DNA from: an uncultured Alphaproteobacteria bacterium
Lineage (GTDB): Bacteria > Pseudomonadota > Alphaproteobacteria > RF32 > CAG-239
Direction: 5' to 3'
Length of the DNA stretch: 64,000 nt
Assembly: GCA_944391465.1 (NCBI GenBank)
Contig: CALXTS010000001.1
Span: 26,441-90,440, forward strand
Part shown: positions 13,512-54,427 of the stretch, piece after piece
Numbering within the stretch: the stretch's first letter is position 1
Layout of the letters: each line of letters opens with the position of its first letter
The notes under the pieces: generated by a model
What the model saw: only the letters and a program-made list of their open reading frames with translations
What the model was told of the DNA's origin: nothing
Database searches by the model: none
Made by a program: the position numbers and the translations under genes

Positions 13512-14600
13512 CTATTTTTGCTTTTTCTCTTTGGTTAAAGCCGTCTTTACGGCTCGTCTTGCCGAAAGGATAGCCGCCTCAATGGAACATGGGAAATCTT
13601 TCATTGTCCAGTCTCCGGCAATAAACATATTTCCATATTTTGTTTGTGCGTTTTCAGGGCGGAGAATATTGTTATATACATCTTGTGCGATGGTTGCGTT
13701 TTGGTGAATAATAACTTTATGTGGAGGTAAAAAAGCTGAATTTACTCCACGAAGGATATCTAGTTGTTTCCAAAGTCTTTCGGGGAGGGCTTTTATTTCT
13801 TCAACTGTCATGCGAGCATCAGAAATTGTGAATGAAACAATATCTTCATTAATAAATACCCAATCGGCTAATCCGTTTATTATTCCCATATAGCCGGCTA
13901 ATTTAGGTAAATTTATTTCTTGTGACGTGCGAAAATGAACGTTGATTATGCTGTTAAAAGTAAAATCGCGACTTTGAAATATTTTTGAATAAGCAGCTGC
14001 GTCTAAAGCAACAATAACAATATCATTTTTATCTAACTCCAATATTCCTTTATTGAAGTGTAAGGTTGCTATTTTTCCAAATTCTACACCTACACTTTCT
14101 AAGCGATGTCCGTATTTTATTTCATCTGCGTAGATAAGCATTGGATTAATTAATCTTTGTGTTAAATCATTTTTTGAAAAATAGACGCCGAGTTGGTGTT
14201 TGCTCCACGGAAAAAGTTTCCAGCAGATATTTTTTATCATTTTGCGGGGAATATCTTCGGCTTGAGTGTTGCACATTGATTTGAGTATTTGTCGATGGTA
14301 TTTGAAAATTTTGCTGGTAATGGTGTCTTTTTCTGCATCCCAAAAGTAGGTTTGGGACGGCCAGCGATGAACTCCGGTCAGAGCTGAAGCCATTCTGTTT
14401 CCTCGCAAAATTACATGTGTCGCATTATCTAAGCGGCACCCCATTTCTTTGTCATCATATGAATAACAGCGTCCTCCGGGACGATTGTTTGCTTCATAGA
14501 TAATAATTTTGCTTTGCGGGCGTTGTTTTCTTAGAAAACGTGAACACATCAATCCGGCAATTCCGGCTCCTATAATATGATATGTCGGTTGGTTTGGCAT
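13512..14600 (-). CDS. hpnE: Squalene-associated FAD-dependent desaturase (hydroxysqualene dehydroxylase) HpnE.
   Basis: An N-terminal dinucleotide-binding motif (HIIGAGIAGLMCS) and amine-oxidase-like architecture. It is the third gene after two squalene/phytoene-synthase paralogues. Confidence 0.7.
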   Translation of the reverse strand: MPNQPTYHIIGAGIAGLMCSRFLRKQRPQSKIIIYEANNRPGGRCYSYDDKEMGCRLDNATHVILRGNRMASALTGVHRWPSQTYFWDAEKDTITSKIFKYHRQILKSMCNTQAEDIPRKMIKNICWKLFPWSKHQLGVYFSKNDLTQRLINPMLIYADEIKYGHRLESVGVEFGKIATLHFNKGILELDKNDIVIVALDAAAYSKIFQSRDFTFNSIINVHFRTSQEINLPKLAGYMGIINGLADWVFINEDIVSFTISDARMTVEEIKALPERLWKQLDILRGVNSAFLPPHKVIIHQNATIAQDVYNNILRPENAQTKYGNMFIAGDWTMKDFPCSIEAAILSARRAVKTALTKEKKQK

Positions 14601-14602
14601 TA

Positions 14603-15436
14603 TTATTTTTCCATATAGGCTTTGAGTGTCAAACAGAGTTTTAAAAATTTACTGACTTTTGGTTTGGGCGATATTATCTCCCATCCACGATTTTGCATGA
14701 TATCAAAATATCTTTTATAAACATATGCAATAGCTTTTACCGGACGGGCTATTTTTTTATCAAGTTTCTTTATTTGTCTGAAAGCCTCTTGATAATATTC
14801 ATCGGCAAGTTGAGCAAGATCCTCTCGAGCAATAGCTAAGTTTTTATCGACAACAACAGTCATCGGGTCCCTGGATATTATTCCCGCTTTTCGCAAGCAT
14901 TCTTCAGGGATGTAGAGCCGTTGCGCCATGGCGTCTTCTTTTACGTCACGTAAAATATTGGTAATTTGCAAAGCTGTTCCCAGCGAGGTGGACAAGTTTT
15001 CGATTTGTTTTTCGTCTTTGCATCCAAAAATTCTTAAAGATAAATTTCCGGGAACGCCGGCAACTCCTCGGCAATAACGTTTAAAATCTTCCATTGACGG
15101 GGCTTGAATAGGAAAGGGGAGATCCATGGCTATACTATCTATCATACGGATAAACTCTTCTTTGGGAAGACCAAATCTCATACAGTTTTTGTAAATGCGA
15201 CGGCCAATATCCGTGCTGGGCTGTTTTTTATCAAAAATATTGTCCATCTCTTCTCGCCAGTCGTTGATTATTTCCAGTTTTTCTTCAACACTGTCATTGC
15301 CGTCAACAATGTCATCTAAATGCCGAAACAAGGCGTATATGGTAAACATGGCATTGCGACGGGCGCGAGGCAAGAAACGCATGCTCCAAAAAAAAGATGT
15401 TCCTGATTTTTTTACCATGTTTTTGATGTTATTCAT
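14603..15436 (-). CDS. hpnD: Squalene/phytoene synthase family protein, probably presqualene diphosphate synthase HpnD. The start is taken at the internal MNNIKNM, which avoids overlap with the upstream gene.
   Basis: Trans-isoprenyl diphosphate synthase head-to-head motifs (YALFRHLDDIVDG; ...NILRDVKEDA). It is the second gene of the operon. Confidence 0.7.
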   Translation of the reverse strand: MNNIKNMVKKSGTSFFWSMRFLPRARRNAMFTIYALFRHLDDIVDGNDSVEEKLEIINDWREEMDNIFDKKQPSTDIGRRIYKNCMRFGLPKEEFIRMIDSIAMDLPFPIQAPSMEDFKRYCRGVAGVPGNLSLRIFGCKDEKQIENLSTSLGTALQITNILRDVKEDAMAQRLYIPEECLRKAGIISRDPMTVVVDKNLAIAREDLAQLADEYYQEAFRQIKKLDKKIARPVKAIAYVYKRYFDIMQNRGWEIISPKPKVSKFLKLCLTLKAYMEK

Positions 15437-16299
15437 TTTATTGTTCCGACAGTTCTTTTTCTGGTAAATAACCCTCTCATTCCTCCGATTATGGATGATT
15501 TTATCCAATCAGTACGGGATAGTTTAATTTCTTGTGAGAGAATATCATTCTTTTGTAGTTTTTTTATCATACAATTAGTTAAAGAAAGTATAATTCCGAG
15601 TTCTATTTTCAAACGTTTGTTTTTTACAATTGAGGGAAGAAGCTCGGCATCTTTGAGCATGGATTGTTGGCGGGCGAGAATTTCATTTTTGAGTTCTGTA
15701 AGCCCTGGTGTACTGTATGTCAGGTACAAATCACTATCTTGGACATCATAATGTTTACACATATCTTCAGGTAGATATATGCGTCGTAGCATCATCGCGT
15801 CATATTTTATATCTTGGATGTGGTTGACGATTTGTAGGACGGTACATAGTGTTGCGGCCGGAAGATAGGTTGATGGATTTTCATTGTGAATGGCCAACAT
15901 AAAACGTCCGACCGGTACTGCTGAATAGTTGCAATAATCTATGAGTTCATCCCAAATCCGAGGTCTGATATTCTCAGCATCTCGACGGAAGGCTTTTAAT
16001 AAATCCGTATAAAGTGAGGCGTCTAAATTTTCAGATTTAAATAACTGTCCGAGGGCACTGGCTTCGGTACTTGCTTTATTTTTTTGGGGATTTAAAAATG
16101 CTGTTTCATATTGGTTTAGAAGGTGTAATTTTTCGTCCGGACTTAATTCATTATTATCCGCAATATCATCGGCACTGCGCGCTGCTTTGTAATATGCCAT
16201 GACTAAAGGGCGCAGTTTTTTATTTATAAATTTACCGACGGTAAAATTTTCATCAGGTGCATTTTTTTTGCGTATTTTGTTCATATTGCCTCCAGCCAT
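15433..16299 (-). CDS. hpnC: Squalene/phytoene synthase family protein, probably hydroxysqualene synthase HpnC.
   Basis: ENFTVG near the N-terminus, [14 protein letters not shown] and [12 protein letters not shown] motifs. It is the first gene of the hpn operon. Confidence 0.7.
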
Positions 16300-17630: not shown

Positions 17631-17775
17631 TTTTATTACCTTCTTTATTTATGTTGGGTTTTTTATAAATTTATTCTTATCAAATGTAAATAAAAACTTC
17701 TTATGATAAGTTGTGCTTAATGTTTGCTATATTGAATTAAACTTAGTATATTTTATAAAAAATTGGCTGATTTTA

Positions 17776-18972
17776 ATGATGAATAAAAAGTTTTGTTTAT
17801 ATATATCAGGAGCATTGTGCTTTGCTTTTTTCTCTTCAATGGCTTTTGCCAGTGAAGACAGCGTGCCGTATATGTATGGCGGTGCGGTTAATTATGAGCA
17901 ACTTGAAATGGTAAATGCTCAGATGAGCAAAACTAAACCGGAATTTGAACAAGGCGATATTTTTGGTGCGGATACGTTTGATATCGGTGATGAAACACCT
18001 GTTTTGCCTCCTGAAAATAAACAAGAAGATATAACATCCGGTACGGAGTTGCCTTCACCAAATGCGACTCCTGAAGTTCCTATGCTTCAAGCTGATTCAG
18101 ATTCTCAAAAAGAACAGAAACTGCCGGAAAAAGAACTTAATCAGGAAAGTTTGAGTGAGAATTTTTCTGATACGGATGTTGCAGAAGAAAATGCTTTTGC
18201 CGGAGAGGAAGATTTCCTTTTATCCGAAGAAACAGCTGATGCCGGAAACAAGCAAACCTGGATTGATAAGATTTCAAGTGAGAAAGCTCTTTCTAAGTTT
18301 AAGGATTTATCATCAGGAGAAGATAGTTTGGAGGATTTGGTTGATAAGGCGCGTTCCGGAACTAATAAACGTTCAAATGCTTCGGTTTTTGATATTTCCG
18401 GTTTGATGTTACGTATGACTCTCAAGCAAGTTGATGGTATTATGCAAAACAGAGGGTTTAAAAAGGTTATGGAACGTCTTGAAATCCCTAATTTTATAAA
18501 ATGGAGAAATGAAGAAAAATGCCGAAACAGCGGTGTTGTCGGTTATGAAAGGTTGGAGGCCTGTGTGATACAAAAAGCTAAAGAAGACAAACATCAATAT
18601 GTGCAACATACAAAGTATGCCAAATATGATACAAAAGAAGAGATTGAGGTTTTCTTTACCAGTAATTTTACGGATAATAAGGCTTATAAAATTATGTATC
18701 AGAGTATGGCTTCGGCTCTTACCGGAAACAGTCCTAAGGCTATGTATCTTTACAATATAAAAGTTTATGATTTTTGGAGGCGAATTAATCGTAAATATGG
18801 GGTTCCCGATAATAAACAGATGGTTACATGGGGCTTGGGTAACGGAAAAGCCTATCTTAAAGCAAAAACCGGAGAATTGGTTTTGGAAGATCCTATGTTT
18901 AGGGAGCTTGATTATACGAGAATGTCACGCGAAGATCAGCGATATTTGGCAACGGATTTGTATAGTTTTTAA
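17776..18972 (+). CDS. Hypothetical secreted protein with an acidic low-complexity N-terminal region. The start is the internal MMNKKF, where the signal peptide begins.
   Basis: Signal peptide MMNKKFCLYISGALCFAFFSSMAFA, followed by a D/E/S-rich stretch. Confidence 0.55.
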   Translation: MMNKKFCLYISGALCFAFFSSMAFASEDSVPYMYGGAVNYEQLEMVNAQMSKTKPEFEQGDIFGADTFDIGDETPVLPPENKQEDITSGTELPSPNATPEVPMLQADSDSQKEQKLPEKELNQESLSENFSDTDVAEENAFAGEEDFLLSEETADAGNKQTWIDKISSEKALSKFKDLSSGEDSLEDLVDKARSGTNKRSNASVFDISGLMLRMTLKQVDGIMQNRGFKKVMERLEIPNFIKWRNEEKCRNSGVVGYERLEACVIQKAKEDKHQYVQHTKYAKYDTKEEIEVFFTSNFTDNKAYKIMYQSMASALTGNSPKAMYLYNIKVYDFWRRINRKYGVPDNKQMVTWGLGNGKAYLKAKTGELVLEDPMFRELDYTRMSREDQRYLATDLYSF

Positions 18973-18992
18973 TATTGAAAGAGTTTAGTAAA

Positions 18993-19607
18993 ATGAGTAA
19001 TGAATTGTCATCTGTTGAAATTGCCGAATTGATTTGTACCCGTATAAGTCATGATCTTGTCGGAAATGTCGGAGTTATTGCAAATGGTGTGGAATTGTTG
19101 GAAGAGGGTGATGTCGAGTTTTTAGATGATATTCGCTCTATTTTTAAAACGGGTTCCGGAGTTTTAGCGTCTCGTCTTAAATTTTTTCGGCTTGCTTTCG
19201 GACTAAATAACACTAATCTTGAAGATTTTGATTTTGTAAAGGAAATTGTAAATAACTATCTTCAGACACTTGGAAATAAAAATTATCCGATAATGCTTGA
19301 TTGGAAATTGGAAAATTCAACCTATACTAAAGCTGTTTTGGTTATGATTATGATTATGTCCGATATTTTTATTAGAGGTGGAAAAATTAACGTTGTTTCT
19401 GAAAATGGACGGGTTAGGGTATTTCCGATTTCTGATTATTCAATGTCAGATGAGAAAATAAAAACAGTAAAAAATATTTTAAATGGTGAAGAGACTGAAC
19501 CTTCGGCGCAATATGCTCCGGTTTATTTTTTAATTTCTTTATTAAGGAAACAAAAAATTAATCTTTATGTTATAAATTCCCCGAACTTGGAATTGGTAGT
19601 GGAGTAA
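18993..19607 (+). CDS. chpT: Histidine phosphotransferase ChpT. The ORF track starts at a TTG at 18975; an ATG at 18993 with an upstream AAAGAG is preferred.
   Basis: RISHDLVGNVGVIANGVELLEE ... SRLKFFRLAFG and MLDWKLE align well with the Caulobacter ChpT (RLCHDFISPASAIVSGLDLLED ... LLQFTRVAFG ... TLDWQIE). Confidence 0.8.
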   Translation: MSNELSSVEIAELICTRISHDLVGNVGVIANGVELLEEGDVEFLDDIRSIFKTGSGVLASRLKFFRLAFGLNNTNLEDFDFVKEIVNNYLQTLGNKNYPIMLDWKLENSTYTKAVLVMIMIMSDIFIRGGKINVVSENGRVRVFPISDYSMSDEKIKTVKNILNGEETEPSAQYAPVYFLISLLRKQKINLYVINSPNLELVVE

Positions 19608-19616
19608 AAAACTGAT

Positions 19617-19982
19617 ATGCCCAGATGTGTTATTGCTGATGACTCTAAAGTAATAAGGATGCTTTTAAGCCGAATTATGACGAATTTCGGTTTCGAGGTT
19701 TCTGAGGTTGAAGATGGTGAAGAATTATTGGAGAATTGCCTTACTACTCAGCCCGAATTGATTATCAGCGACTGGGAGTTGCCAGCAATGGATGGTATTG
19801 ATGTTTTGTATAAAATTCGTGGGTATTCTCGTTTAAAACAGCCGAAATTTGTTTTTTGTTCTTCTTTTAATGATATTTCAAAGGCTCAAGAAGCTGTTGA
19901 TGGTGGTGCGGATGATTATATCTTTCGCCCCTTTGATGAGGAAATTATTGCGACGAAATTAACTATTTTAGGGTTGTTGTAG
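19617..19982 (+). CDS. Single-domain response regulator (CheY/CpdR-like receiver).
   Basis: Acidic pocket DD (aa 8-9) and phospho-acceptor Asp in IISDWELP. An Arg replaces the conserved Lys in DYIFRPF. Confidence 0.8.
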   Translation: MPRCVIADDSKVIRMLLSRIMTNFGFEVSEVEDGEELLENCLTTQPELIISDWELPAMDGIDVLYKIRGYSRLKQPKFVFCSSFNDISKAQEAVDGGADDYIFRPFDEEIIATKLTILGLL

Positions 19983-19992
19983 GAGGGGAAAT

Positions 19993-20895
19993 ATGAGAAA
20001 AAGTGATTTTGAATTTTTGACCTCACTCCTGCGTCAGTATGCCGGTTGGGATTTTAATGAAGAACAGTATTTTGTTGTTGATAGAAAAATCTCTAATTTT
20101 ATTCGAGAAAAAAATTACCCCGATGTTGAAGATTTAATTGATGAACTTAAATTGGGTGCAAGAGCTTTGATTTCTCAAGTTGTTGAGAGTTTGGCGTTGT
20201 CTGATACTTCTTTTTATAGAGATTTTGACGTATTTCAGCGTTTTGAGACTATTTTGTTGCCAAATTTACGTGAAAACAACCGTTCCAGTAAAAAAATCCG
20301 TTTTTGGAGTTTGGGGTGTGCTACCGGTCAAGAAGCATATTCAATCGCGATGGCTGTAAAAAATACCGTTTTGGGGTTGGATGATTGGAATATTGAAATT
20401 TTGGGTAGTGATTTATCTGCGGAAGCTATCAATAAAGCTCAGAAAGGTATCTATAATAATTTTGAAGTTCAAACAGGTTTAAATGTGAAATCTATTCTGA
20501 AGTTTTTTCATCAGGAAGGTGCTAATTGGGTAATTAATGATGATATTAGAGGTATGGTAGATTTTCGTCGTTATAATCTTTTAGAGGATATTACTTTTTC
20601 AAATAAATTTGATGTTATCTTTTGTCGGAATGTTTTGCGTTTCTTTTCTCCGGAATATCAACAATTGCTTTTAGCAAAAATAAGTTCTTATCAGGCACAA
20701 GGCGGAATCCTCTATTTAGGGAAAAATGAGCATATTGAAGGTATTGAGGATTATTATAATAAATTACCCGGATTTAATTGTGTGTATGTTTCTAAGATTA
20801 CAACCGTACAGCAAGATATGTCTTTACAGAAGGTTTCTGGGAGTGAAACGGTAGAAGTTATGCCTAGTTTTGTCCGCCCTACAGGATTGTTGTAA
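19993..20895 (+). CDS. cheR: CheR-type chemotaxis protein methyltransferase.
   Basis: FFRDFDVFQ and the SAM-binding block IRFWSLGCATGQEAYSIAMAV, with overall CheR N- and C-domain organisation. Confidence 0.8.
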   Translation: MRKSDFEFLTSLLRQYAGWDFNEEQYFVVDRKISNFIREKNYPDVEDLIDELKLGARALISQVVESLALSDTSFYRDFDVFQRFETILLPNLRENNRSSKKIRFWSLGCATGQEAYSIAMAVKNTVLGLDDWNIEILGSDLSAEAINKAQKGIYNNFEVQTGLNVKSILKFFHQEGANWVINDDIRGMVDFRRYNLLEDITFSNKFDVIFCRNVLRFFSPEYQQLLLAKISSYQAQGGILYLGKNEHIEGIEDYYNKLPGFNCVYVSKITTVQQDMSLQKVSGSETVEVMPSFVRPTGLL

Positions 20896-20921: not shown

Positions 20922-20957
20922 AAAATCCGTCGGAACGTTAATTCCGACGGATTTTTA
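20922..20957 (+). terminator. Rho-independent terminator after cheR.
   Basis: aaaatccgtcggaa / cgttaa / ttccgacggatttt followed by T5. Confidence 0.8.
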
Positions 20958-21182
20958 CTTGCTGCAATAAATTTTGTCCTTAGGATAAAATTATTTGTTG
21001 ACTCTGTGTTTTTGATGGGATATACTGAAGGAGTAATATGCTGGCGGATATTTTTAATGTTTAAGGATATTCGCATACTATGAACATATAAATAACTCTG
21101 ATAATATAAATATATTTTGGCGCCACCGAAATATAAATCTCCGTCCGTATATTACCTCAGTTTATTATTGAGGAGAACGGAC

Positions 21183-22271
21183 ATGCAGAAGCATATACAT
21201 CTTATTTCAGTATTCATCCTTAGTCTTTTTTTATTTATCTGCAAAGCCCAAGCGGCAGTTTTGTTTCTTCCTCATGCAAATTACGGATATGCGGAAACTT
21301 GTCTTCGTTTAGGTATGACCGATACGATGCGCAGCGGTTATGTCTGCGAGCAAAAAAGCGTTATTGATGAAATGAACAAAGAAAAGATAACGGTATGTTA
21401 TAAGAACTGTCGTGCGCAAAGCTGTAAAATCATCAATTCAAGTTACAAAACAAGTTCCGAGAAAAGTTCATATGAGATGAAAGGTTATAACTGTACGGAG
21501 AGTTCTGAGAAAAGTATCAGCGGCTCATGTTACAAGTGTGATTGTGATAACGGAAACGTTAAGAACGGTTATTGTTTATGTAGCTCAGGATATAGTCGCA
21601 AACAAGTTGACGGGGCATGGAGTTGTGTTTGTGAGGCGGTTGACCATAAAGAACTGATAAATGGCGCGTGTCGGTGTTCATCTGGTTATGTTATGGACGA
21701 CAAGAACAACTGTATTTGTGACGGAAGCGTCAATAAAGAAATTAAAGCCGACGGAAGTTGCGGCTGTATAGCCGGCACGGCGGAACAATCGGACGGAAGT
21801 TGTAAGAAGGTTGAATGTTTATCGGGTTATTATTTAGATAATTCGACCTGTATGGCGTGTCCGGAAGGGAGTTACAGTGAGGCTGGTTCGATTGGTATAG
21901 ACAGTTGTGAATACTGTCCGGAAGGTTACACGTTAGGATTAGGCAATTGCGAAAAAGAAGAGCATCCGGAAGGATTTGAATACAGTAACGCGGTAGATTC
22001 CAACAATATGCCGATATATTTGGGAAATCGGATATGCGGGAAGTGTGAAGAAAAGAAATGTACGGAACCGTACGGAAAGATAGACAGTTGTTCCGATGAC
22101 ACGAAAGCGCTTTTTTATAACGGAGAATATGCAGGAAACACGGCGTGCGGAGCATGTATCCAAATCAAGTGTGCGGAAGGCAAGATAGATTATGAGGCGT
22201 GTTATGAGGAAAGCGGCATAAACTACGGTGCGATTTCTGCGTGGGTATCCATGGGCAGTTTGGTTGAATAG
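21183..22271 (+). CDS. Secreted cysteine-rich repeat protein with ephrin-receptor-like / GCC2-GCC3-type CxxCPxGxY modules. The start is MQKHIHL, which has a GAGGAG RBS.
   Basis: Signal peptide (LISVFILSLFLFICKAQA) and more than 50 Cys residues in repeated CxC...SGY and C..CPEGSYS / CEYCPEGYT modules. Confidence 0.65.
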   Translation: MQKHIHLISVFILSLFLFICKAQAAVLFLPHANYGYAETCLRLGMTDTMRSGYVCEQKSVIDEMNKEKITVCYKNCRAQSCKIINSSYKTSSEKSSYEMKGYNCTESSEKSISGSCYKCDCDNGNVKNGYCLCSSGYSRKQVDGAWSCVCEAVDHKELINGACRCSSGYVMDDKNNCICDGSVNKEIKADGSCGCIAGTAEQSDGSCKKVECLSGYYLDNSTCMACPEGSYSEAGSIGIDSCEYCPEGYTLGLGNCEKEEHPEGFEYSNAVDSNNMPIYLGNRICGKCEEKKCTEPYGKIDSCSDDTKALFYNGEYAGNTACGACIQIKCAEGKIDYEACYEESGINYGAISAWVSMGSLVE

Positions 22272-22292: not shown

Positions 22293-23552
22293 ATGAAAGA
22301 TTACAGAAAGTATGCGTTATGGTATGGGGTTGGTTGTTTGATATTACCGCAAATAAGCTATGCGATGACTTGTGAAGAAGCTCCGGATTGTACGGCGCTC
22401 GGGTTTAAGGTTTCCGGCTCGGAGGTTAAGAGTAAGTGCAACGGATTGAGCCGAATGAAGTGTCCTTTCGGGGATTATTACTTCTGCTCCGAGAAAAAAT
22501 GCGAAGAAGATGATTATCCTTATACCAAAAGCAACTGCAGCTATACTCTTGCCGGAAGTACCTGTGAAGATGCACAAGGAACTCATTATAAGGAATGTAT
22601 TCAGTCTTGTGATACATCAAAATATCCTTATACGTCATCAAACTGTGAAGGTTCAGTTTCAGGAACGACGTGTAGAGACAGCAGCGGAACGCACTACAGT
22701 GCTTGTGTTTGTGGTTATACATATACCACCAGCAATTGCACTTCTCCTAAAGAACCAAGCGGAAAATCTTGTTATGACGGAACACAGTATAAACATGAAT
22801 ATTGTACATGTCCGAGCGATTATAAATATTATAGCTATACTTGTAGTGGTACCTTAGGCGGCGGTTCTTGTTGTAAAAGCGAAGATTATAGTGGGAAATG
22901 TATTAGTGAATCTTATAAATCTTGTGATTGCGGCGATGAATACAAATATACTATAGACAATTGTTCTGGTAATATCAGTGGCTCTATTTGTGTAAGTAGG
23001 TACGTTGATAACAGAATATCTAGTTATCCAGGAACCGATTATGCAACGGAGTGTTGCACAAGCGGATGTTGTATCGGATATTTTTACTATAGTGATGATA
23101 CTTGCGGAAAAGAAGAAACAAAATCAGGGACAAAAACTTTAGGAGTAGTGGTCGCTTCCGGAAAAGTATTAAATGTGGAAAAAAATGCAGTATCTCAAAT
23201 TAGTGCTATTGAAGATTTTACTTTGGCTTGCAGCATTTATAATGAAGGAGGAAAATCTTGGTATGCACCTTCCATCAGCGATTTACAATCAATCAGAATT
23301 GATATTTTGAATGCGGATGGAACTTATGATAATAATTTTAGAGAAACCGATTATTATATTTCTGCAACAGGAACTGCTTCTCAAATATACATGTATAAAG
23401 CAGCAAACACTTATACACACAAAGGTGGTGTATCTGCTACGAAAGGAATGGTGACGACAAAATCTTTACCTATAGAAGAAACTGGATATCAGCCAGATAT
23501 GAGTGATTATGTTGCAATACATGCATATGCCAGTTGTATGTTCAACTTTTGA
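22293..23552 (+). CDS. Secreted cysteine-rich protein with tandem ~35-aa YPYT-SNC...G-TC-D--GTHY--C modules and a non-Cys C-terminal domain of about 150 aa.
   Basis: Signal peptide (YALWYGVGCLILPQISYA). The module is repeated at least three times (DDYPYTKSNCSYTLAGSTCEDAQGTHYKEC; SKYPYTSSNCEGSVSGTTCRDSSGTHYSAC; YTYTTSNCTSPKEPSGKSCYDGTQYKHEYC). Confidence 0.65.
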   Translation: MKDYRKYALWYGVGCLILPQISYAMTCEEAPDCTALGFKVSGSEVKSKCNGLSRMKCPFGDYYFCSEKKCEEDDYPYTKSNCSYTLAGSTCEDAQGTHYKECIQSCDTSKYPYTSSNCEGSVSGTTCRDSSGTHYSACVCGYTYTTSNCTSPKEPSGKSCYDGTQYKHEYCTCPSDYKYYSYTCSGTLGGGSCCKSEDYSGKCISESYKSCDCGDEYKYTIDNCSGNISGSICVSRYVDNRISSYPGTDYATECCTSGCCIGYFYYSDDTCGKEETKSGTKTLGVVVASGKVLNVEKNAVSQISAIEDFTLACSIYNEGGKSWYAPSISDLQSIRIDILNADGTYDNNFRETDYYISATGTASQIYMYKAANTYTHKGGVSATKGMVTTKSLPIEETGYQPDMSDYVAIHAYASCMFNF

Positions 23553-47018: not shown

Positions 47019-48296
47019 ATGAAAGAAGAGGGGTTGCTCATGGCTAAAAAATTTGATTATGAACGTATTTGTAAAAAATTTTATAAGCTCAATGTTGGTG
47101 CTTTATTTGTGAAAATGGGTCCCGAAAAACTTAAAATTGTTTTTAATATCATAAAAAAAGTTAAAGATGATATTGATTATGTTATTTGGATTGCTCCTTC
47201 TCAGTATTTGGCTACTAAAATTTATATGGAAGATATTGCGTATGTTGCAGGGGAGGATATTGCCAGTAAAATTTGTTTCTTTTCCATGGAAAATATTTCA
47301 GTCAAAGATAATGAATATTTAAAACTTTATAATATAAGTGACCGAAATAAGGTTTTTTGTGTTGTCGATGAGAGTATTAATATCAAAAATACTAAAACCG
47401 GACGAACCAAACGTCTGATTGCCATGAAAAACAAGTTTGATTATCGTTTAATTTTGTCGGGAATGATGCTTACTCAAGGTTTGGCTGATTTATATTCTCA
47501 GGTGCAATTTTTGGATTCTGCTATTCTTAATATGACTAAAACTCAGTTTATGCATACGTTTATGCCTTATTATGAAGATGATTTTGAGGTGTCTAAACGT
47601 TGGTCAACTCCCCAAAATGAAGCAAGGTTGATTAAGATGATTCGTCCTTATATCTTGGCTTTTGATTTAAGAGATGATTTTAAAATTATTTATCACAGTA
47701 CTGATTTTCAATTAACTCCGAAGGAAAAAGAATCTTATCAACAGGAAAAAGATGCTTTTTTAAAAGGACGTGACAGAGTGGCTTTTTTACAAGTCGTTCA
47801 GCGTTTCCAATATTTTTATACTATTAGCAGTGATAAGGTTAAGGCTTTAATCAAACTTGTCGATGAAATTCAAAAACGTAATGAAAAAGTTATTATTTAT
47901 ACAAAATATTTGAGTGAAATTAAGTTTTTTAAAGAGGCTCAATTGCTGGGAAAAAACAAATATGTGATTATGTCCGGTAATACTAACAAACTTAACGCTT
48001 TAAAACGGTTTGAAAAAAATGTGGATATTATGTTGTGCACATATAAAGTTGAAGCGCCTCGTTTGAATCTTACCGGTTTTAATAATATTATCTATTTTAC
48101 TCAAACCTATGATTATAAAGATAAAATTCAAACTCTGAATAATTTTTATAATAATAATATCAAAGAAATAAACGTTTATGACTTTTGGGTGGATACAAAA
48201 TTAGAAGGCTTGATTAAAGATAATTTACTTCGCAAAAAAAATGTGCTAAATAATGTTTGTAGTGTTATGTCAAAAAATGAGGCCTTGGAACTATGA
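47019..48296 (+). CDS. SNF2/DEAD-like helicase-family protein with degenerate ATPase motifs. It has no canonical GxGKT, and motif VI lacks the arginines.
   Basis: Motif II DESINIKN (cf. DEAHRIKN), motif III RLILSGMMLTQGLADLYSQVQFL (cf. RLLLTGTPLQN.L.ELW.LL.FL), and helicase-C blocks (KVIIYTKYLSEIKFF; MLCTYKVEAPRLNLTGFNNIIYF). The Walker-A position reads MGPEKLK. Confidence 0.55.
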   Translation: MKEEGLLMAKKFDYERICKKFYKLNVGALFVKMGPEKLKIVFNIIKKVKDDIDYVIWIAPSQYLATKIYMEDIAYVAGEDIASKICFFSMENISVKDNEYLKLYNISDRNKVFCVVDESINIKNTKTGRTKRLIAMKNKFDYRLILSGMMLTQGLADLYSQVQFLDSAILNMTKTQFMHTFMPYYEDDFEVSKRWSTPQNEARLIKMIRPYILAFDLRDDFKIIYHSTDFQLTPKEKESYQQEKDAFLKGRDRVAFLQVVQRFQYFYTISSDKVKALIKLVDEIQKRNEKVIIYTKYLSEIKFFKEAQLLGKNKYVIMSGNTNKLNALKRFEKNVDIMLCTYKVEAPRLNLTGFNNIIYFTQTYDYKDKIQTLNNFYNNNIKEINVYDFWVDTKLEGLIKDNLLRKKNVLNNVCSVMSKNEALEL

Positions 48297-49594
48297 AGAT
48301 ATATAAAGATAAAAATGTTTATGACGCAACTATTGATAGAATTAAATTTGCGTTTGATAACTTTGATAATGTTTATGTATCTTTTTCCGGTGGTAAGGAC
48401 AGCGGCTTGTTGCTAAGTATGGTGCTTGATTATAAACGTCAGCACAATATTTCTAAAAAAATAGGGGTGTTTCATCAGGATTTTGAAGCTCAATATGAAT
48501 TGACAACCGAATATGTTACCAAAATGTTTGAGGAAAATATTGATGATATTGAACCTTATTGGGTTTGTTTGCCGATGGGGTCAAGGTGTGCGGTAAGCAA
48601 CTACCAGATGTATTGGTATCCGTGGGATGATGAAAAAGAAGAACTTTGGGTTCGTGAAATGCCTAAAATGCCTTATATCATCAATTTAAAAAACAATCCG
48701 TTTGATTTTTATAAATACAAAATGTCTCAAGAAGATTTGTATGCCGAGTTTGGGCAATGGTATGCCAGAACGCATAAGGGAAAAACAATTTGTCTTTTGG
48801 GTATTAGAGCTGATGAGTCTATTAATCGTTATCGCGCTTATGCTAATACTCGGAAAGTGTTAATGAAAAATTCTCAGTGGACGACCAAAATGGGAAAAAA
48901 TTTTTATAATGCTTATCCTATGTATGATTGGTCAACAAAAGATGTTTGGATTGCTAATGGAAAATTTGGCTATGAATATAACAAAATTTATGACTTGTAT
49001 TATAAAGCCGGTTTGTCTATTAATCAAATGAGAGTTTCAAGTCCATATCACGAAAACGCTAAGGAAAGTCTCAATTTGTACAGAGTCTTAGAACCTGCTA
49101 CTTGGGCTAAAGTCGTTTCTCGTGTTAATGGTGCTAATTTTGCGGCAATGTATGGAAAATCTAAGTTAATGGGGGTTGGAAAGATTACTTTGCCGGCAGG
49201 GCATACCTGGCGTTCTTATGTCAAATTCCTGTTGGCAACTTTACCCAATGATATTAGAGAAAATTATATTGCCAAATTTAAAACTTCCATCCGCTTTTGG
49301 TGGAAAAAAGGTGGCGTCGTTAGTGATCAAGCGTTGGAGGAGTTGGAGGCTTGCAATTATCGTATTCGACACAATGGTCGCAGTGGGTATAATAAAGAAA
49401 AAGACAGAATCTTATTCTTGGGGACTCCTGATAATACTGATGATATAAAATCGACTATTGATATTCCGTCTTGGAAGAGAATGGCCGTTTGTATTCTCAA
49501 AAATGACCATTTATGTAAGTATATGGGGTTTGCTCAGACTAAAAAACAAACTCAACGTGAAAAGGAATTAATTGAGAAATATAAAAGTTTGTGA
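48293..49594 (+). CDS. PAPS-reductase-like PP-loop ATP pyrophosphatase family protein with a DUF3440-like C-terminal region (IbrA/DndC-like).
   Basis: PP-loop VYVSFSGGKDSGLLLSMV, a length of about 430 aa, and a 4-nt overlap (ATGA) with the upstream SNF2-like gene. Confidence 0.65.
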   Translation: MKIYKDKNVYDATIDRIKFAFDNFDNVYVSFSGGKDSGLLLSMVLDYKRQHNISKKIGVFHQDFEAQYELTTEYVTKMFEENIDDIEPYWVCLPMGSRCAVSNYQMYWYPWDDEKEELWVREMPKMPYIINLKNNPFDFYKYKMSQEDLYAEFGQWYARTHKGKTICLLGIRADESINRYRAYANTRKVLMKNSQWTTKMGKNFYNAYPMYDWSTKDVWIANGKFGYEYNKIYDLYYKAGLSINQMRVSSPYHENAKESLNLYRVLEPATWAKVVSRVNGANFAAMYGKSKLMGVGKITLPAGHTWRSYVKFLLATLPNDIRENYIAKFKTSIRFWWKKGGVVSDQALEELEACNYRIRHNGRSGYNKEKDRILFLGTPDNTDDIKSTIDIPSWKRMAVCILKNDHLCKYMGFAQTKKQTQREKELIEKYKSL

Positions 49595-49603
49595 GGAATA
49601 ATA

Positions 49604-50119
49604 ATGGCTGATTTTGTTAGTCCGGTTTATAATGTCATGGCTGTACCTGTTGAGAAGGTTTTTGCTAATGACTATAATCCGAATAAAGTGGCACCACCGG
49701 AGATGAAATTGTTAGAGCTTTCCATTTGGGAAGATGGTTTTACTCAGCCGGTTGTGTGTTATTATGACAAAGAGGGGGATAAATATATTGTTGTTGATGG
49801 TTTCCATCGTTATACAATTATGAAAACCAGCGAACGGATTTATGCCAGAGAACACGGAAAACTTCCTATTGTGGTCATTGATAAGGATTTAGGTGAAAGA
49901 ATGGCCTCCACGATTCGACATAATCGCGCCAGAGGTAGTCATAATGTTGATTTGATGAGTAATATTGTGGCTGAGTTGGTTGAAATGGGAAAAAGTGATA
50001 GTTGGATTTGTAAGAATATCGGTATGTCTGCCGACGAGTTGTTACGAATGAAACAAGTAACCGGTTTGGCGGCTTTATTTAAAGACGATGAGTTTTCCTT
50101 GAGTTGGGAAACTAAATAA
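49604..50119 (+). CDS. ParB-like nuclease-domain (ParB/Srx, DGQHR-type) protein (IbrB/DndB-like).
   Basis: KYIVVDGFHRYTIMK (cf. DG.HR) and TIRHNRARGSHN blocks. It sits 9 nt downstream of the PP-loop gene. Confidence 0.6.
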   Translation: MADFVSPVYNVMAVPVEKVFANDYNPNKVAPPEMKLLELSIWEDGFTQPVVCYYDKEGDKYIVVDGFHRYTIMKTSERIYAREHGKLPIVVIDKDLGERMASTIRHNRARGSHNVDLMSNIVAELVEMGKSDSWICKNIGMSADELLRMKQVTGLAALFKDDEFSLSWETK

Positions 50120-54136: not shown

Positions 54137-54427
54137 CTATCTTGGGTTTGTATCTATAACGTTAACACCAATACTTTCATTATCGGTGACGACAACTTCT
54201 CCGTGTCCGATGAGGACATTGTTGGCATATATGTCAACATAGTCATTAATGCCGCGATCAAGTTCAACAACTGCTCCGCGTCCGAGTTTTAAAAGTTGGT
54301 TTACGCGCAGATCTGCGGTACCCAGAGTGATTGAAACTTCAACCAGAATATCATCTTCAGAATTTGCTTTTTTATTAAAAGCCATATATTTGCTCCTGAT
54401 TCCTACAAAATTATTTTTTACAGACAA
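54137..54427 (-). CDS. fliN: Flagellar motor switch protein FliN (SpoA domain), short form.
   Basis: ILVEVSITLGTADLRVNQLLKLGRGAVVELDRGINDYVDIYANNVLIGHGEVVVTDNESIGVNV aligns closely with the FliN C-terminal SpoA domain. Confidence 0.75.
   Translation of the reverse strand: MSVKNNFVGIRSKYMAFNKKANSEDDILVEVSITLGTADLRVNQLLKLGRGAVVELDRGINDYVDIYANNVLIGHGEVVVTDNESIGVNVIDTNPR

Follow-up and report, generated by a model that had tools for sequence, protein, structure and literature searches.

The chpT-cheY-cheR gene order of an uncultured gut alphaproteobacterium is an old alphaproteobacterial inheritance

Why is a ChpT-like phosphotransferase of the cell-cycle relay encoded beside a CheY-like receiver and a CheR methyltransferase? 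Here, we address this question for a locus in a 64-kb stretch of DNA, referred to as the window, from an uncultured gut alphaproteobacterium. We conclude that the chpT-cheY-cheR linkage is not confined to this genome. The gene order is old and inherited, is known from Caulobacter and other Alphaproteobacteria and is functionally unstudied, and the locus is an ordinary added member. We consider it probable (∼60%) that the linkage is the inherited remnant of a chemosensory operon that lay beside chpT, and that cheY and cheR are conventional chemotaxis accessories. Our literature searches found no paper on a chpT/che linkage and nothing useful on gut "RF32" Alphaproteobacteria and chemotaxis. The locus comprises the following features:

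17631..17775, + strand: intergenic stretch separating the first operon gene from the divergent trmFO (− strand); houses the promoter candidate
17776..18972, + strand: up419, a 398-aa secreted protein with no assigned function; probably the operon's first gene
18993..19607, + strand: chpT, divergent histidine phosphotransferase ChpT, 204 aa, assigned by sequence and fold; phospho-acceptor His20 in RISHD
19617..19982, + strand: single-domain CheY-like receiver of the Caulobacter CC3471 type, 121 aa, assigned by profile, identity and tree
19993..20895, + strand: cheR, CheR-family SAM-dependent methyltransferase, 300 aa, assigned by Pfam profiles and PDB match
20922..20960, + strand: intrinsic terminator with a perfect 14-bp stem and a 6-nt loop followed by a U-run

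Several observations support the idea that these genes form one transcription unit. An ORF check of the window confirmed chpT, the receiver gene and cheR as three consecutive ORFs on the + strand, with gaps of 9 nt and 10 nt, respectively, and a strong Shine-Dalgarno sequence (AGGAGG) before cheR. Between chpT and cheR, no sigma-70-like site scores above chance level. RNA folding reveals a hairpin downstream of cheR (arms 20922-20935 and 20942-20955; ΔG −24.8 kcal/mol; z = −4.89), and none of 200 shuffled sequences is as stable; this hairpin is visible through folding, while a scan for consensus terminators gave no match. The three genes are almost certainly co-transcribed, in agreement with the initial annotation, which had proposed an operon ending in a single terminator after cheR. 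What it had missed is that the operon probably begins one gene earlier, with up419. We therefore suggest a + strand operon of four genes, which encode the secreted protein, ChpT, the CheY-like receiver and CheR; it probably starts in the intergenic region next to trmFO and is closed by the hairpin. The sole promoter-like site 5' of the operon (TTGCTA-17-TATATT; 17724-17752) matches the consensus at 9/12 positions, which is chance level, and is a candidate only. No CtrA box (TTAA-N7-TTAA) lies near the operon or within the trmFO-proximal intergenic region, and the entire window contains two such boxes against 8.3 expected; hence, nothing here points to control by CtrA.

The up419 gene, which the initial annotation had not recognized as the first gene, ends 20 nt before the ATG of chpT, and its reading frame is open from a GTG at 17713. 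The protein carries a signal peptide (MMNKKFCLYISGALCFAFFSSMAFA); its N-terminal half is acidic and disordered, and its C-terminal domain of ∼190 aa is strongly conserved. Searches of Pfam, NCBIfam and the PDB gave no match, and the AF2 model, which is poor outside residues 210-370, gave no significant Foldseek match. The family has ∼700 members, exclusively in uncultured Alphaproteobacteria, and up419 is a clade-specific protein. It is encoded directly 5' of chpT in 11/11 gut-clade loci examined, including six loci that lack the receiver gene and cheR, and the three up419-chpT gaps measured in gut-clade loci are 7-14 nt.

The ChpT assignment made in the initial annotation was borne out. The two sequence blocks on which it rested, HDL..N and FxRLAFG, are present as RISHDLVGN and LKFFRLAFG. 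His20 (RISHDL) aligns with RICHDI of Brucella and RLCHDF of Caulobacter and does not vary across 48 clade members, and the PDB sequence matches of the protein are Brucella and Caulobacter ChpT only. In the AF2 model (pLDDT 91.4; helices 7-37 and 41-69), the protein has a DHp-like helical hairpin with the H-box His, a C-terminal CA-like α/β domain and the overall ChpT fold. The best seven Foldseek matches of this model are all ChpT structures (4qpj, 4qpk, 4fmt and 4fpp) at TM 0.73-0.80, followed by histidine kinases at TM ≤0.52. The sequence shows neither a DxGxG nor a GxGxG ATP-lid motif. The only families matched are ChpT models, although all scores are below the curated cut-offs, i.e., 17.5 bits for Pfam HPTransfase PF10090 (gathering score 22.9) and 68.7 and 49.9 bits for NCBIfam NF046018 and NF046025 (cut-offs 240 and 225, respectively); many clade members of ChpT carry a precomputed PF10090 match. 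A TTG start further upstream at 18975 is unlikely for chpT because homologues are mostly 202-205 aa long. Judged by sequence and predicted fold, the identification as a genuine but divergent ChpT holds. The protein would then be the phosphotransferase from CckA to CtrA and CpdR in this bacterium, and it may serve CtrA, whose gene is found directly after cheR in sister species.

The second gene of the trio encodes a receiver (REC) domain only (Pfam Response_reg, 83.5 bits), and its best PDB matches are CheYs. The initial annotation had considered that it might be a CpdR-type receiver, i.e., a ClpXP adaptor, that adjoins cheR by coincidence. This idea has some appeal because CpdR is a known phosphorylation target of ChpT and, as a member of the CckA-ChpT pathway, likewise consists of one receiver domain (∼120 aa). 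However, the window receiver is only 18% identical to CpdR, as judged with a reference sequence validated at 209.8 bits on the NCBIfam equivalog NF046022 (cut-off 180), and 24% identical to E. coli CheY. The 25 best NCBIfam families of the receiver do not include the CpdR model, which thus scores below 43.5 bits. In a phylogeny, the receiver falls into a clade with 98% bootstrap support that is separate from CpdR, DivK and CtrA and consists solely of chpT-adjacent single-domain receivers, namely, the Caulobacter CC3471 type, the cheY of the Sneathiella and Pedomonas che clusters and the small Rhizobiales receiver encoded between chpT and ctrA. Moreover, adjacency to cheR recurs in distant orders. 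We therefore rule out CpdR identity and give a chance neighborhood of CpdR and cheR next to no credence. By sequence, the receiver is an orthologue of the chpT-linked Caulobacter CC3471-type receivers; it is 41-43% identical, over its full length and ungapped, to the chpT-linked receivers of Caulobacter, Sneathiella and Pedomonas. With regard to the conserved CheY positions D12, D13, D57, T87 and K109, it retains the acidic residues as D8, D9 and D52 and has Ser at the T87 position. At the K109 position, Arg replaces Lys in the window (IFRPF) and in the sister species L005 and L089 (3/6 species), while L006, L090 and L091 have Lys; this substitution had escaped the initial annotation.

CheR contains the catalytic domain (PF01739, 170.9 bits) and the N-terminal all-alpha CheR_N domain (PF03705, 27.3 bits; GA 27) and matches P. 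aeruginosa CheR1 (5xly) over its full length at 134 bits. Orthology with the chpT-linked CheRs is weakly supported by these comparisons: the protein is 41-42% identical to the linked CheRs vs. 33% to P. aeruginosa CheR1, and the linked CheRs are monophyletic with 47% bootstrap in a tree with three outgroups only. In Salmonella numbering, R98 and Y235 are key catalytic residues (PMC3447774). Arg98 is conserved (FYRD), while Tyr235 is replaced by Phe (CRNVLRFF vs. CRNVMIYF) in 6/6 gut-clade species; this position is Gly or Ala in the Caulobacter orthologues, and IYF is kept by CheRs inside full che clusters and by the UBA6038 CheR. All six gut-clade species also share a C-terminal extension of ∼40 aa that ends in MPSFxRP. 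Neither the Tyr235 substitution nor the tail had been noted in the initial annotation.

Gene order in relatives, for which the initial annotation had called, proved to be conserved. The four-gene unit is retained in five gut-clade sister species: L089, L090 and L091 repeat the tight gaps (8-11 nt for the three computed) with ChpT proteins 47-56% identical to that of the window, and L005 and L006 have the same four genes in identical order. The recurrence of the tight spacing and the four-gene order indicates that the arrangement is under selection and not due to chance. In three of these five species, ctrA (NCBIfam CtrA, 401 bits vs. a cut-off of 350) and fliI-fliJ follow directly after cheR, a neighborhood also absent from the initial annotation. 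Flagellar genes therefore exist in this lineage, i.e., fliI/fliJ in relatives and a fliN-like ORF in the window; ctrA itself is absent from the 64-kb window.

We scanned genomes for chpT loci with an alignment of three ChpT sequences; the neighborhoods sampled lie outside Rhodospirillales, Rhodobacterales, Hyphomonadaceae and Rickettsiales. In Caulobacter spp., chpT is followed by a 121-aa receiver and then CheR. In Caulobacter crescentus, these genes correspond to CC3470, which is chpT (PMC3433190), and to CC3471 and CC3472, which are cheY and cheR, respectively (PMC2529317; PMC7534056). The order and orientation of CC3470-CC3471-CC3472 are those in the window, with cheR immediately after the gene for the receiver ("CheYIV"), which has the same length as the window receiver and is 41-42% identical to it. 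Both lineages have also lost the catalytic Tyr235 of CheR. The two loci differ in that Caulobacter lacks up419, in whose place lie divergent genes for a DUF3553 protein and inositol monophosphatase, its receiver keeps Lys109, its CheR lacks the MPSFxRP tail and its ChpT is only ∼21-30% identical to that of the window. In UBA6038, chpT, the receiver gene and cheR are likewise contiguous. By contrast, Sneathiella chinensis has a full cluster, cheA(-REC), cheW, cheY, cheB and cheR, which begins ∼235 nt downstream of chpT and in which the canonical catalytic residues are preserved, and tblastn suggests that Pedomonas and L019 probably have a similar layout. Outside the gut clade, the nearest relatives of the window cheY and cheR are their counterparts in Sneathiella and Pedomonas (41-43% identity), which follow chpT in the same orientation. 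The Sneathiella-type order presumably resembles that of the Che1 operon of Azospirillum brasilense. In Rhizobiales (Mesorhizobium, Brucella/Ochrobactrum, Rhizobium and Agrobacterium), chpT is followed by a small single-domain receiver of the same clade and then by ctrA on the opposite strand. Unlike the window, these loci lack cheR. Just past the receiver, ctrA is in convergent orientation, as is the ctrA that follows cheR in the gut-clade sister species. Degeneration of the Rhizobiales receivers shows in Leu at the T87 position and, in Rhizobium and Agrobacterium, also in Ser for the second acidic residue.

Because the receiver clade is made up only of chpT-adjacent receivers, we interpret the linkage as ancestral synteny, and inherited gene order is a simpler explanation than a new wiring of the CckA-ChpT relay. 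We suggest that an ancestral alphaproteobacterial cheA-cheW-cheY-cheB-cheR operon lay directly downstream of chpT, that it stayed intact in Sneathiella and Pedomonas, that it was cut down to cheY-cheR in Caulobacter, UBA6038 and the gut clade, and that all that is left of it in Rhizobiales is one degenerate receiver flanked by chpT and ctrA. The window receiver and CheR would then be orthologues of the CC3471/CC3472 pair. The chemotaxis role of the pair is inferred, and the window itself contains no MCP, CheA, CheW or CheB; the receiver would be phosphorylated by a CheA encoded elsewhere, and CheR would methylate chemoreceptors. Co-transcription would place cheY and cheR in an expression program shared with cell-cycle and motility regulators and need not imply direct phosphotransfer from ChpT to CheY.

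Judged by these substitutions, the two proteins may have lost the canonical functions of CheR and CheY. The pair could have been repurposed, with the Phe235 CheR and its MPSFxRP tail, together with the Lys109Arg receiver, acting on another substrate or as a scaffold tied to the CtrA/flagellar locus. This scenario fits the absence of Tyr235, one of two residues key to catalysis, from the gut-clade and Caulobacter CheRs, the conservation of the extension in all six species and the lack of MCP and CheA genes within 64 kb. However, CheR retains Arg98, the SAM-binding motifs, the β-subdomain region and the basic N-terminal helix; Tyr to Phe is a conservative substitution with which activity may persist; and the flagellar genes of the lineage keep a conventional role in chemotaxis plausible. 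We therefore regard repurposing as unlikely. Somewhat less likely still is that ChpT passes phosphate to the receiver as its third acceptor, or that the receiver serves as a phosphate sink or a modulator of CckA-ChpT, in an operon that wires the cell cycle to motility or methylation; such wiring was the second alternative of the initial annotation. Adjacency of chpT and the receiver gene is kept in Caulobacterales, the gut clade, UBA6038 and Rhizobiales, the gaps are as short as 8-10 nt, and a Caulobacter CC3471 deletion strain was among those chosen for morphology imaging (PMC1233412). The persistence of the Rhizobiales receiver beside chpT and ctrA with no che gene left hints at a chpT-related function beyond that of a passive relic. 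On the other hand, the orthologous receiver lies inside a complete cheA-cheW-cheY-cheB-cheR cluster in Sneathiella and Pedomonas, which implies CheA as its kinase, and the specificity residues in the α1 helix of the window receiver look CheY-like: in the alignment, this helix (SKVIRMLLSRIMT) has 5/13 residues in common with T. maritima CheY, two with CpdR and none with the CtrA of the clade. A 2006 phosphotransfer profile of ChpT against all Caulobacter receivers reportedly picked out only CtrA and CpdR. These two proteins are also the only ChpT targets given in the literature consulted (PMC2877005; PMC4575426). A broader version, to which we assign a lower probability again, holds that the chpT-linked receiver is an overlooked component, as third acceptor or sink, of the CckA-ChpT-CtrA pathway throughout the Alphaproteobacteria, and that the Tyr235-less CheR with its MPSFxRP tail acts on a target other than chemoreceptors, thereby coupling cell-cycle state to motility. 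If true, this would explain why the receiver is retained beside chpT and ctrA in Rhizobiales, in which the locus is otherwise stripped of its che cluster.

Altogether, we favor the inherited che-operon relic beside chpT as a simple evolutionary account of this locus, which adds an uncultured gut lineage to an arrangement known from the model genome of Caulobacter. Three comparative patterns emerge. One receiver clade is tied to chpT over several orders, its receiver is kept beside ctrA in Rhizobiales, and the catalytic Tyr of CheR is eroded in the gut clade and Caulobacter, i.e., in two of the three lineages with cheY-cheR only, while UBA6038 keeps IYF. These patterns point to a question that can be asked in Caulobacter or Brucella/Ochrobactrum, namely, whether ChpT or CheA passes phosphate to CC3471-type receivers.

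The chpT, receiver and cheR reading frames of the initial annotation were called on the + strand at exactly its coordinates, and the short spacing it described was measured as gaps of 9 nt and 10 nt, with AGGAGG 5' of cheR. We place the chpT start at ATG 18993 rather than TTG 18975, since databases list an identical protein of 204 aa and relatives are mostly 202-205 aa long; the identical ChpT is present on metagenome contigs.

Features of the chpT operon and its 3' side (window coordinates)
17776-18972, + strand: secreted-protein gene, ORF of 398 aa
18993-19607, + strand: chpT, ORF of 204 aa
19617-19982, + strand: single-domain receiver, ORF of 121 aa
19993-20895, + strand: cheR, ORF of 300 aa
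20922-20935 with 20942-20955, 3' of cheR: terminator hairpin stem, from folding
21117-22271, + strand: Cys-rich secreted ORF of 384 aa, signal peptide
22293-23552, + strand: Cys-rich secreted ORF of 419 aa, signal peptide

The terminator noted after cheR was recovered as a hairpin: although a pattern scan reported none, positions 20890-20975 fold into a perfect 14-bp stem followed by U's (dG -24.8 kcal/mol, z = -4.9), and 0/200 shuffles fold equally well. A promoter separating cheR from the preceding genes, which the initial annotation had allowed for, did not emerge, as a promoter scan gave no promoter-like site above chance in the chpT-cheR stretch; the sole candidate promoter lies in the 145-nt region common to the operon and the divergent trmFO. 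The operon probably extends one gene upstream, to the gene for a protein with the signal peptide MMNKKFCLYISGALCFAFFSSMAFA, which ends 20 nt before chpT. An orthologue lies directly 5' of chpT in 11/11 loci recovered (L005-L012, L089-L091) from the gut clade to which the window organism belongs, with gaps of 7-14 nt in the sister-species loci L089-L091, and six of these loci without receiver and cheR still carry it. Its family has ~700 members, all unnamed and all from uncultured Alphaproteobacteria. The protein has no match in Pfam, NCBIfam, PADLOC or PDB, and its structure model, confident for residues 210-370 only, gave no significant match in a fold search. The C-terminal domain is rich in invariant positions, and the protein is clade-restricted.

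The ChpT assignment made from sequence stands, for a protein that is divergent in profiles. Both motifs quoted for it, RISHDLVGN and LKFFRLAFG, are present. The only NCBIfam families matched are the two ChpT equivalogs, at 68.7 and 49.9 bits and far under their cut-offs of 240 and 225 bits, and Pfam HPTransfase scores 17.5 bits, under its gathering score of 22.9; these sub-threshold scores mark ChpT as divergent. By sequence, PDB yields matches to ChpT alone, from Brucella (4qpj, E = 4e-11) and Caulobacter (4fmt, 4fpp), with whose phospho-His His20 aligns. An AlphaFold model from an alignment of 48 clade sequences has a pLDDT of 91.4; its best seven Foldseek matches are all ChpT structures (TM 0.73-0.80), and ordinary histidine kinases reach TM 0.52 at most.

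The receiver consists of a REC domain and nothing more (83.5 bits), and its best relatives among solved structures are CheYs. The suggestion that a CpdR-type receiver lies beside cheR by coincidence is rejected. Identity to CpdR is 18%, and the NCBIfam CpdR model is absent from the receiver's best 25 families (25th, 43.5 bits). A neighbour-joining tree (119 columns, 200 bootstraps) puts the window receiver, along with its two nearest relatives, into a 98%-support clade of exclusively chpT-adjacent receivers. The other members are two receivers from Caulobacter, that of UBA6038, the cheY products of Sneathiella, Pedomonas and locus L019, and the small Rhizobiales receivers. CpdR lies outside this clade, as do DivK (19%), CtrA receivers (21-25%), CheB and CheA receivers, E. 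coli CheY (24%) and T. maritima CheY (31%); of the reference CheY, Spo0F, DivK and CpdR sequences, CpdR alone was validated by a profile (209.8 bits on the NCBIfam CpdR equivalog, cut-off 180). Aligned without gaps over all 121 residues, the window receiver is 41-43% identical to its Caulobacter and Sneathiella counterparts.

The order chpT-receiver-cheR, whose conservation was the further question raised by the initial annotation, recurs in Caulobacter, UBA6038 and five sister species. We scanned genomes for chpT loci (80 loci; synteny by tblastn, Pfam checks), in a sample that excludes Rhodospirillales, Rhodobacterales and Rickettsiales.

Genes 3' of chpT in relatives (coordinates are those of each locus)
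UBA6038: receiver and cheR, contiguous
Sneathiella chinensis: cheA(-REC), cheW, cheY, cheB, cheR; Pedomonas and L019 alike by tblastn
About 50 Rhizobiales: small receiver, then a convergent gene, without cheR
Sphingomonadales: nothing related
Sister species, L005 9828-10517: ctrA, convergent to cheR, NCBIfam 401 bits (cut-off 350)
Sister species, L090 8141-8830: ctrA, convergent to cheR, NCBIfam 401 bits (cut-off 350)
Sister species, L091 8011-8703: ctrA, convergent to cheR, 98% identical by tblastn

Caulobacter chpT is CC3470 (PMC3433190), CC3471 is one of 12 cheY genes (PMC7534056), and CC3471 and CC3472 are CheYIV and CheR, a pair shared with Phenylobacterium (PMC2529317). In two Caulobacter genomes, chpT is followed by genes for a 121-aa Response_reg protein and CheR, which overlap by 4 nt. 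CC3470-72 thus has the same arrangement as the window locus, to which the gut clade adds the upstream secreted protein, a CheR tail, Y235F and K109R. The full set of secreted protein, chpT, receiver and cheR is retained in six gut-clade species, with ChpT identity of 47-100%, and six more distant ones (39-45%) have secreted protein and chpT only. In three gut-clade species, cheR is followed by convergent ctrA and then fliI-fliJ, a block that continues to sodB in L005, L090 and L091. The ctrA-fliI-fliJ block is lost or moved in the window genome, where the two Cys-rich ORFs and recA occupy its place; the sole Pfam match of the ORF pair is weak and TNFR-like, and the first ORF is seemingly frame-shifted or started differently on L001, a strain contig. 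In the Rhizobiales Mesorhizobium, Ochrobactrum/Brucella, Rhizobium and Agrobacterium (L022-L084), the small receiver, of the CC3471 clade, is located ~300-450 nt 3' of chpT, with ctrA on its other side; the convergent gene of Brucella haematophila (L025) was confirmed as ctrA (420.6 bits). Active-site positions of these receivers are degenerate, with Leu at the T87 position of CheY and, in Rhizobium and Agrobacterium, Ser replacing the second Asp. Some Brucella and Bartonella have no small receiver.

The window (G+C ~37%) is otherwise housekeeping in content (dnaG, rpoD, trmFO, recA, fabI, gatAB, recJ, mgtE, pgi, mutL, lpxK, kdtA, lon, HU). The nearest genomes are MAGs, and several isolate labels suggest gut origin (MGBC, MGYG-HGUT, Roe_deer_Colon). 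Next to trmFO, the stretch 13512-16299 (-) carries an amine-oxidase gene and two genes of the squalene/phytoene-synthase family, a neighbourhood kept 5' of the chpT operon in L089-L091. Co-oriented genes for an SNF2-related helicase, a PAPS_reduct/DUF3440 protein and a ParB_N protein follow tRNA-Ser at 47040-50119 (+) and may form a mobile or defence-like module. An 82-aa ORF at 54137-54385 (-), shortly 5' of lon and apart from other flagellar genes, encodes a FliN/FliMN_C domain. All 2-kb bins show positive GC skew, with a monotonic cumulative rise, and the + strand carries the majority of the genes, as would fit one leading-strand segment of a replichore. TTAA-N7-TTAA sites number 2 against 8.3 expected.

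Inheritance is the simplest account of the chpT-cheY-cheR linkage. An early alphaproteobacterium would have carried a chemosensory operon beside chpT, near ctrA, and lineages would have trimmed this operon to differing extents. Two observations point to CheA as the receiver's kinase: its orthologue sits inside a cheA operon, and, of 13 residues in its alpha-1 helix, 5 are shared with T. maritima CheY, 2 with CpdR and 0 with CtrA of the clade. The original ChpT profiling reportedly picked out CtrA and CpdR as the sole ChpT targets. PMC2877005 and PMC4575426 likewise name only these two. Flagellar genes occur in this lineage, and the 64-kb window has no second receiver, CheA, CheW, CheB, MCP or ctrA. 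We favor a scenario in which ChpT serves CtrA, and in which cheY-cheR, co-expressed with chpT, assist a chemotaxis system whose other genes lie elsewhere.

Two minority hypotheses are that the pair is functionally linked to the ChpT/CtrA circuit, or that CheR has been repurposed. The window CheR matches the two domains expected of a CheR (170.9 and 27.3 bits) and aligns full-length with P. aeruginosa CheR1 (134 bits). In Salmonella numbering, checked against the 1af7 chain, and with the roles of R98 and Y235 taken from PMC3447774, catalytic Tyr235 is Phe in all six gut-clade CheRs, which read CRNVL[RH]FF (6/6) versus CRNV(L/M/F)IYF in canonical enzymes; Caulobacter orthologues have Gly or Ala, and both substitutions count among the grounds for these minority hypotheses. 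Tyr235 is kept in the full-cluster CheRs of Sneathiella and Pedomonas and in the UBA6038 CheR; orthology of the chpT-linked CheRs is weakly supported (47% bootstrap). The minority hypotheses also draw on the C-terminal extension common to gut-clade CheRs, ending in MPSF(V/I/K)(R/K)P, on the change of receiver Lys109 (CheY position) to Arg in 3/6 gut-clade species, on the degenerate receiver copy beside chpT and ctrA in Rhizobiales with no che gene left, and on the CC3471 deletion being among strains picked for morphology imaging in a systematic Caulobacter screen (PMC1233412).

The chpT-cheY-cheR pattern is not expected to be a great surprise to specialists. We found no discussion of the linkage in the literature, and the comparative pattern is, therefore, perhaps under-appreciated.
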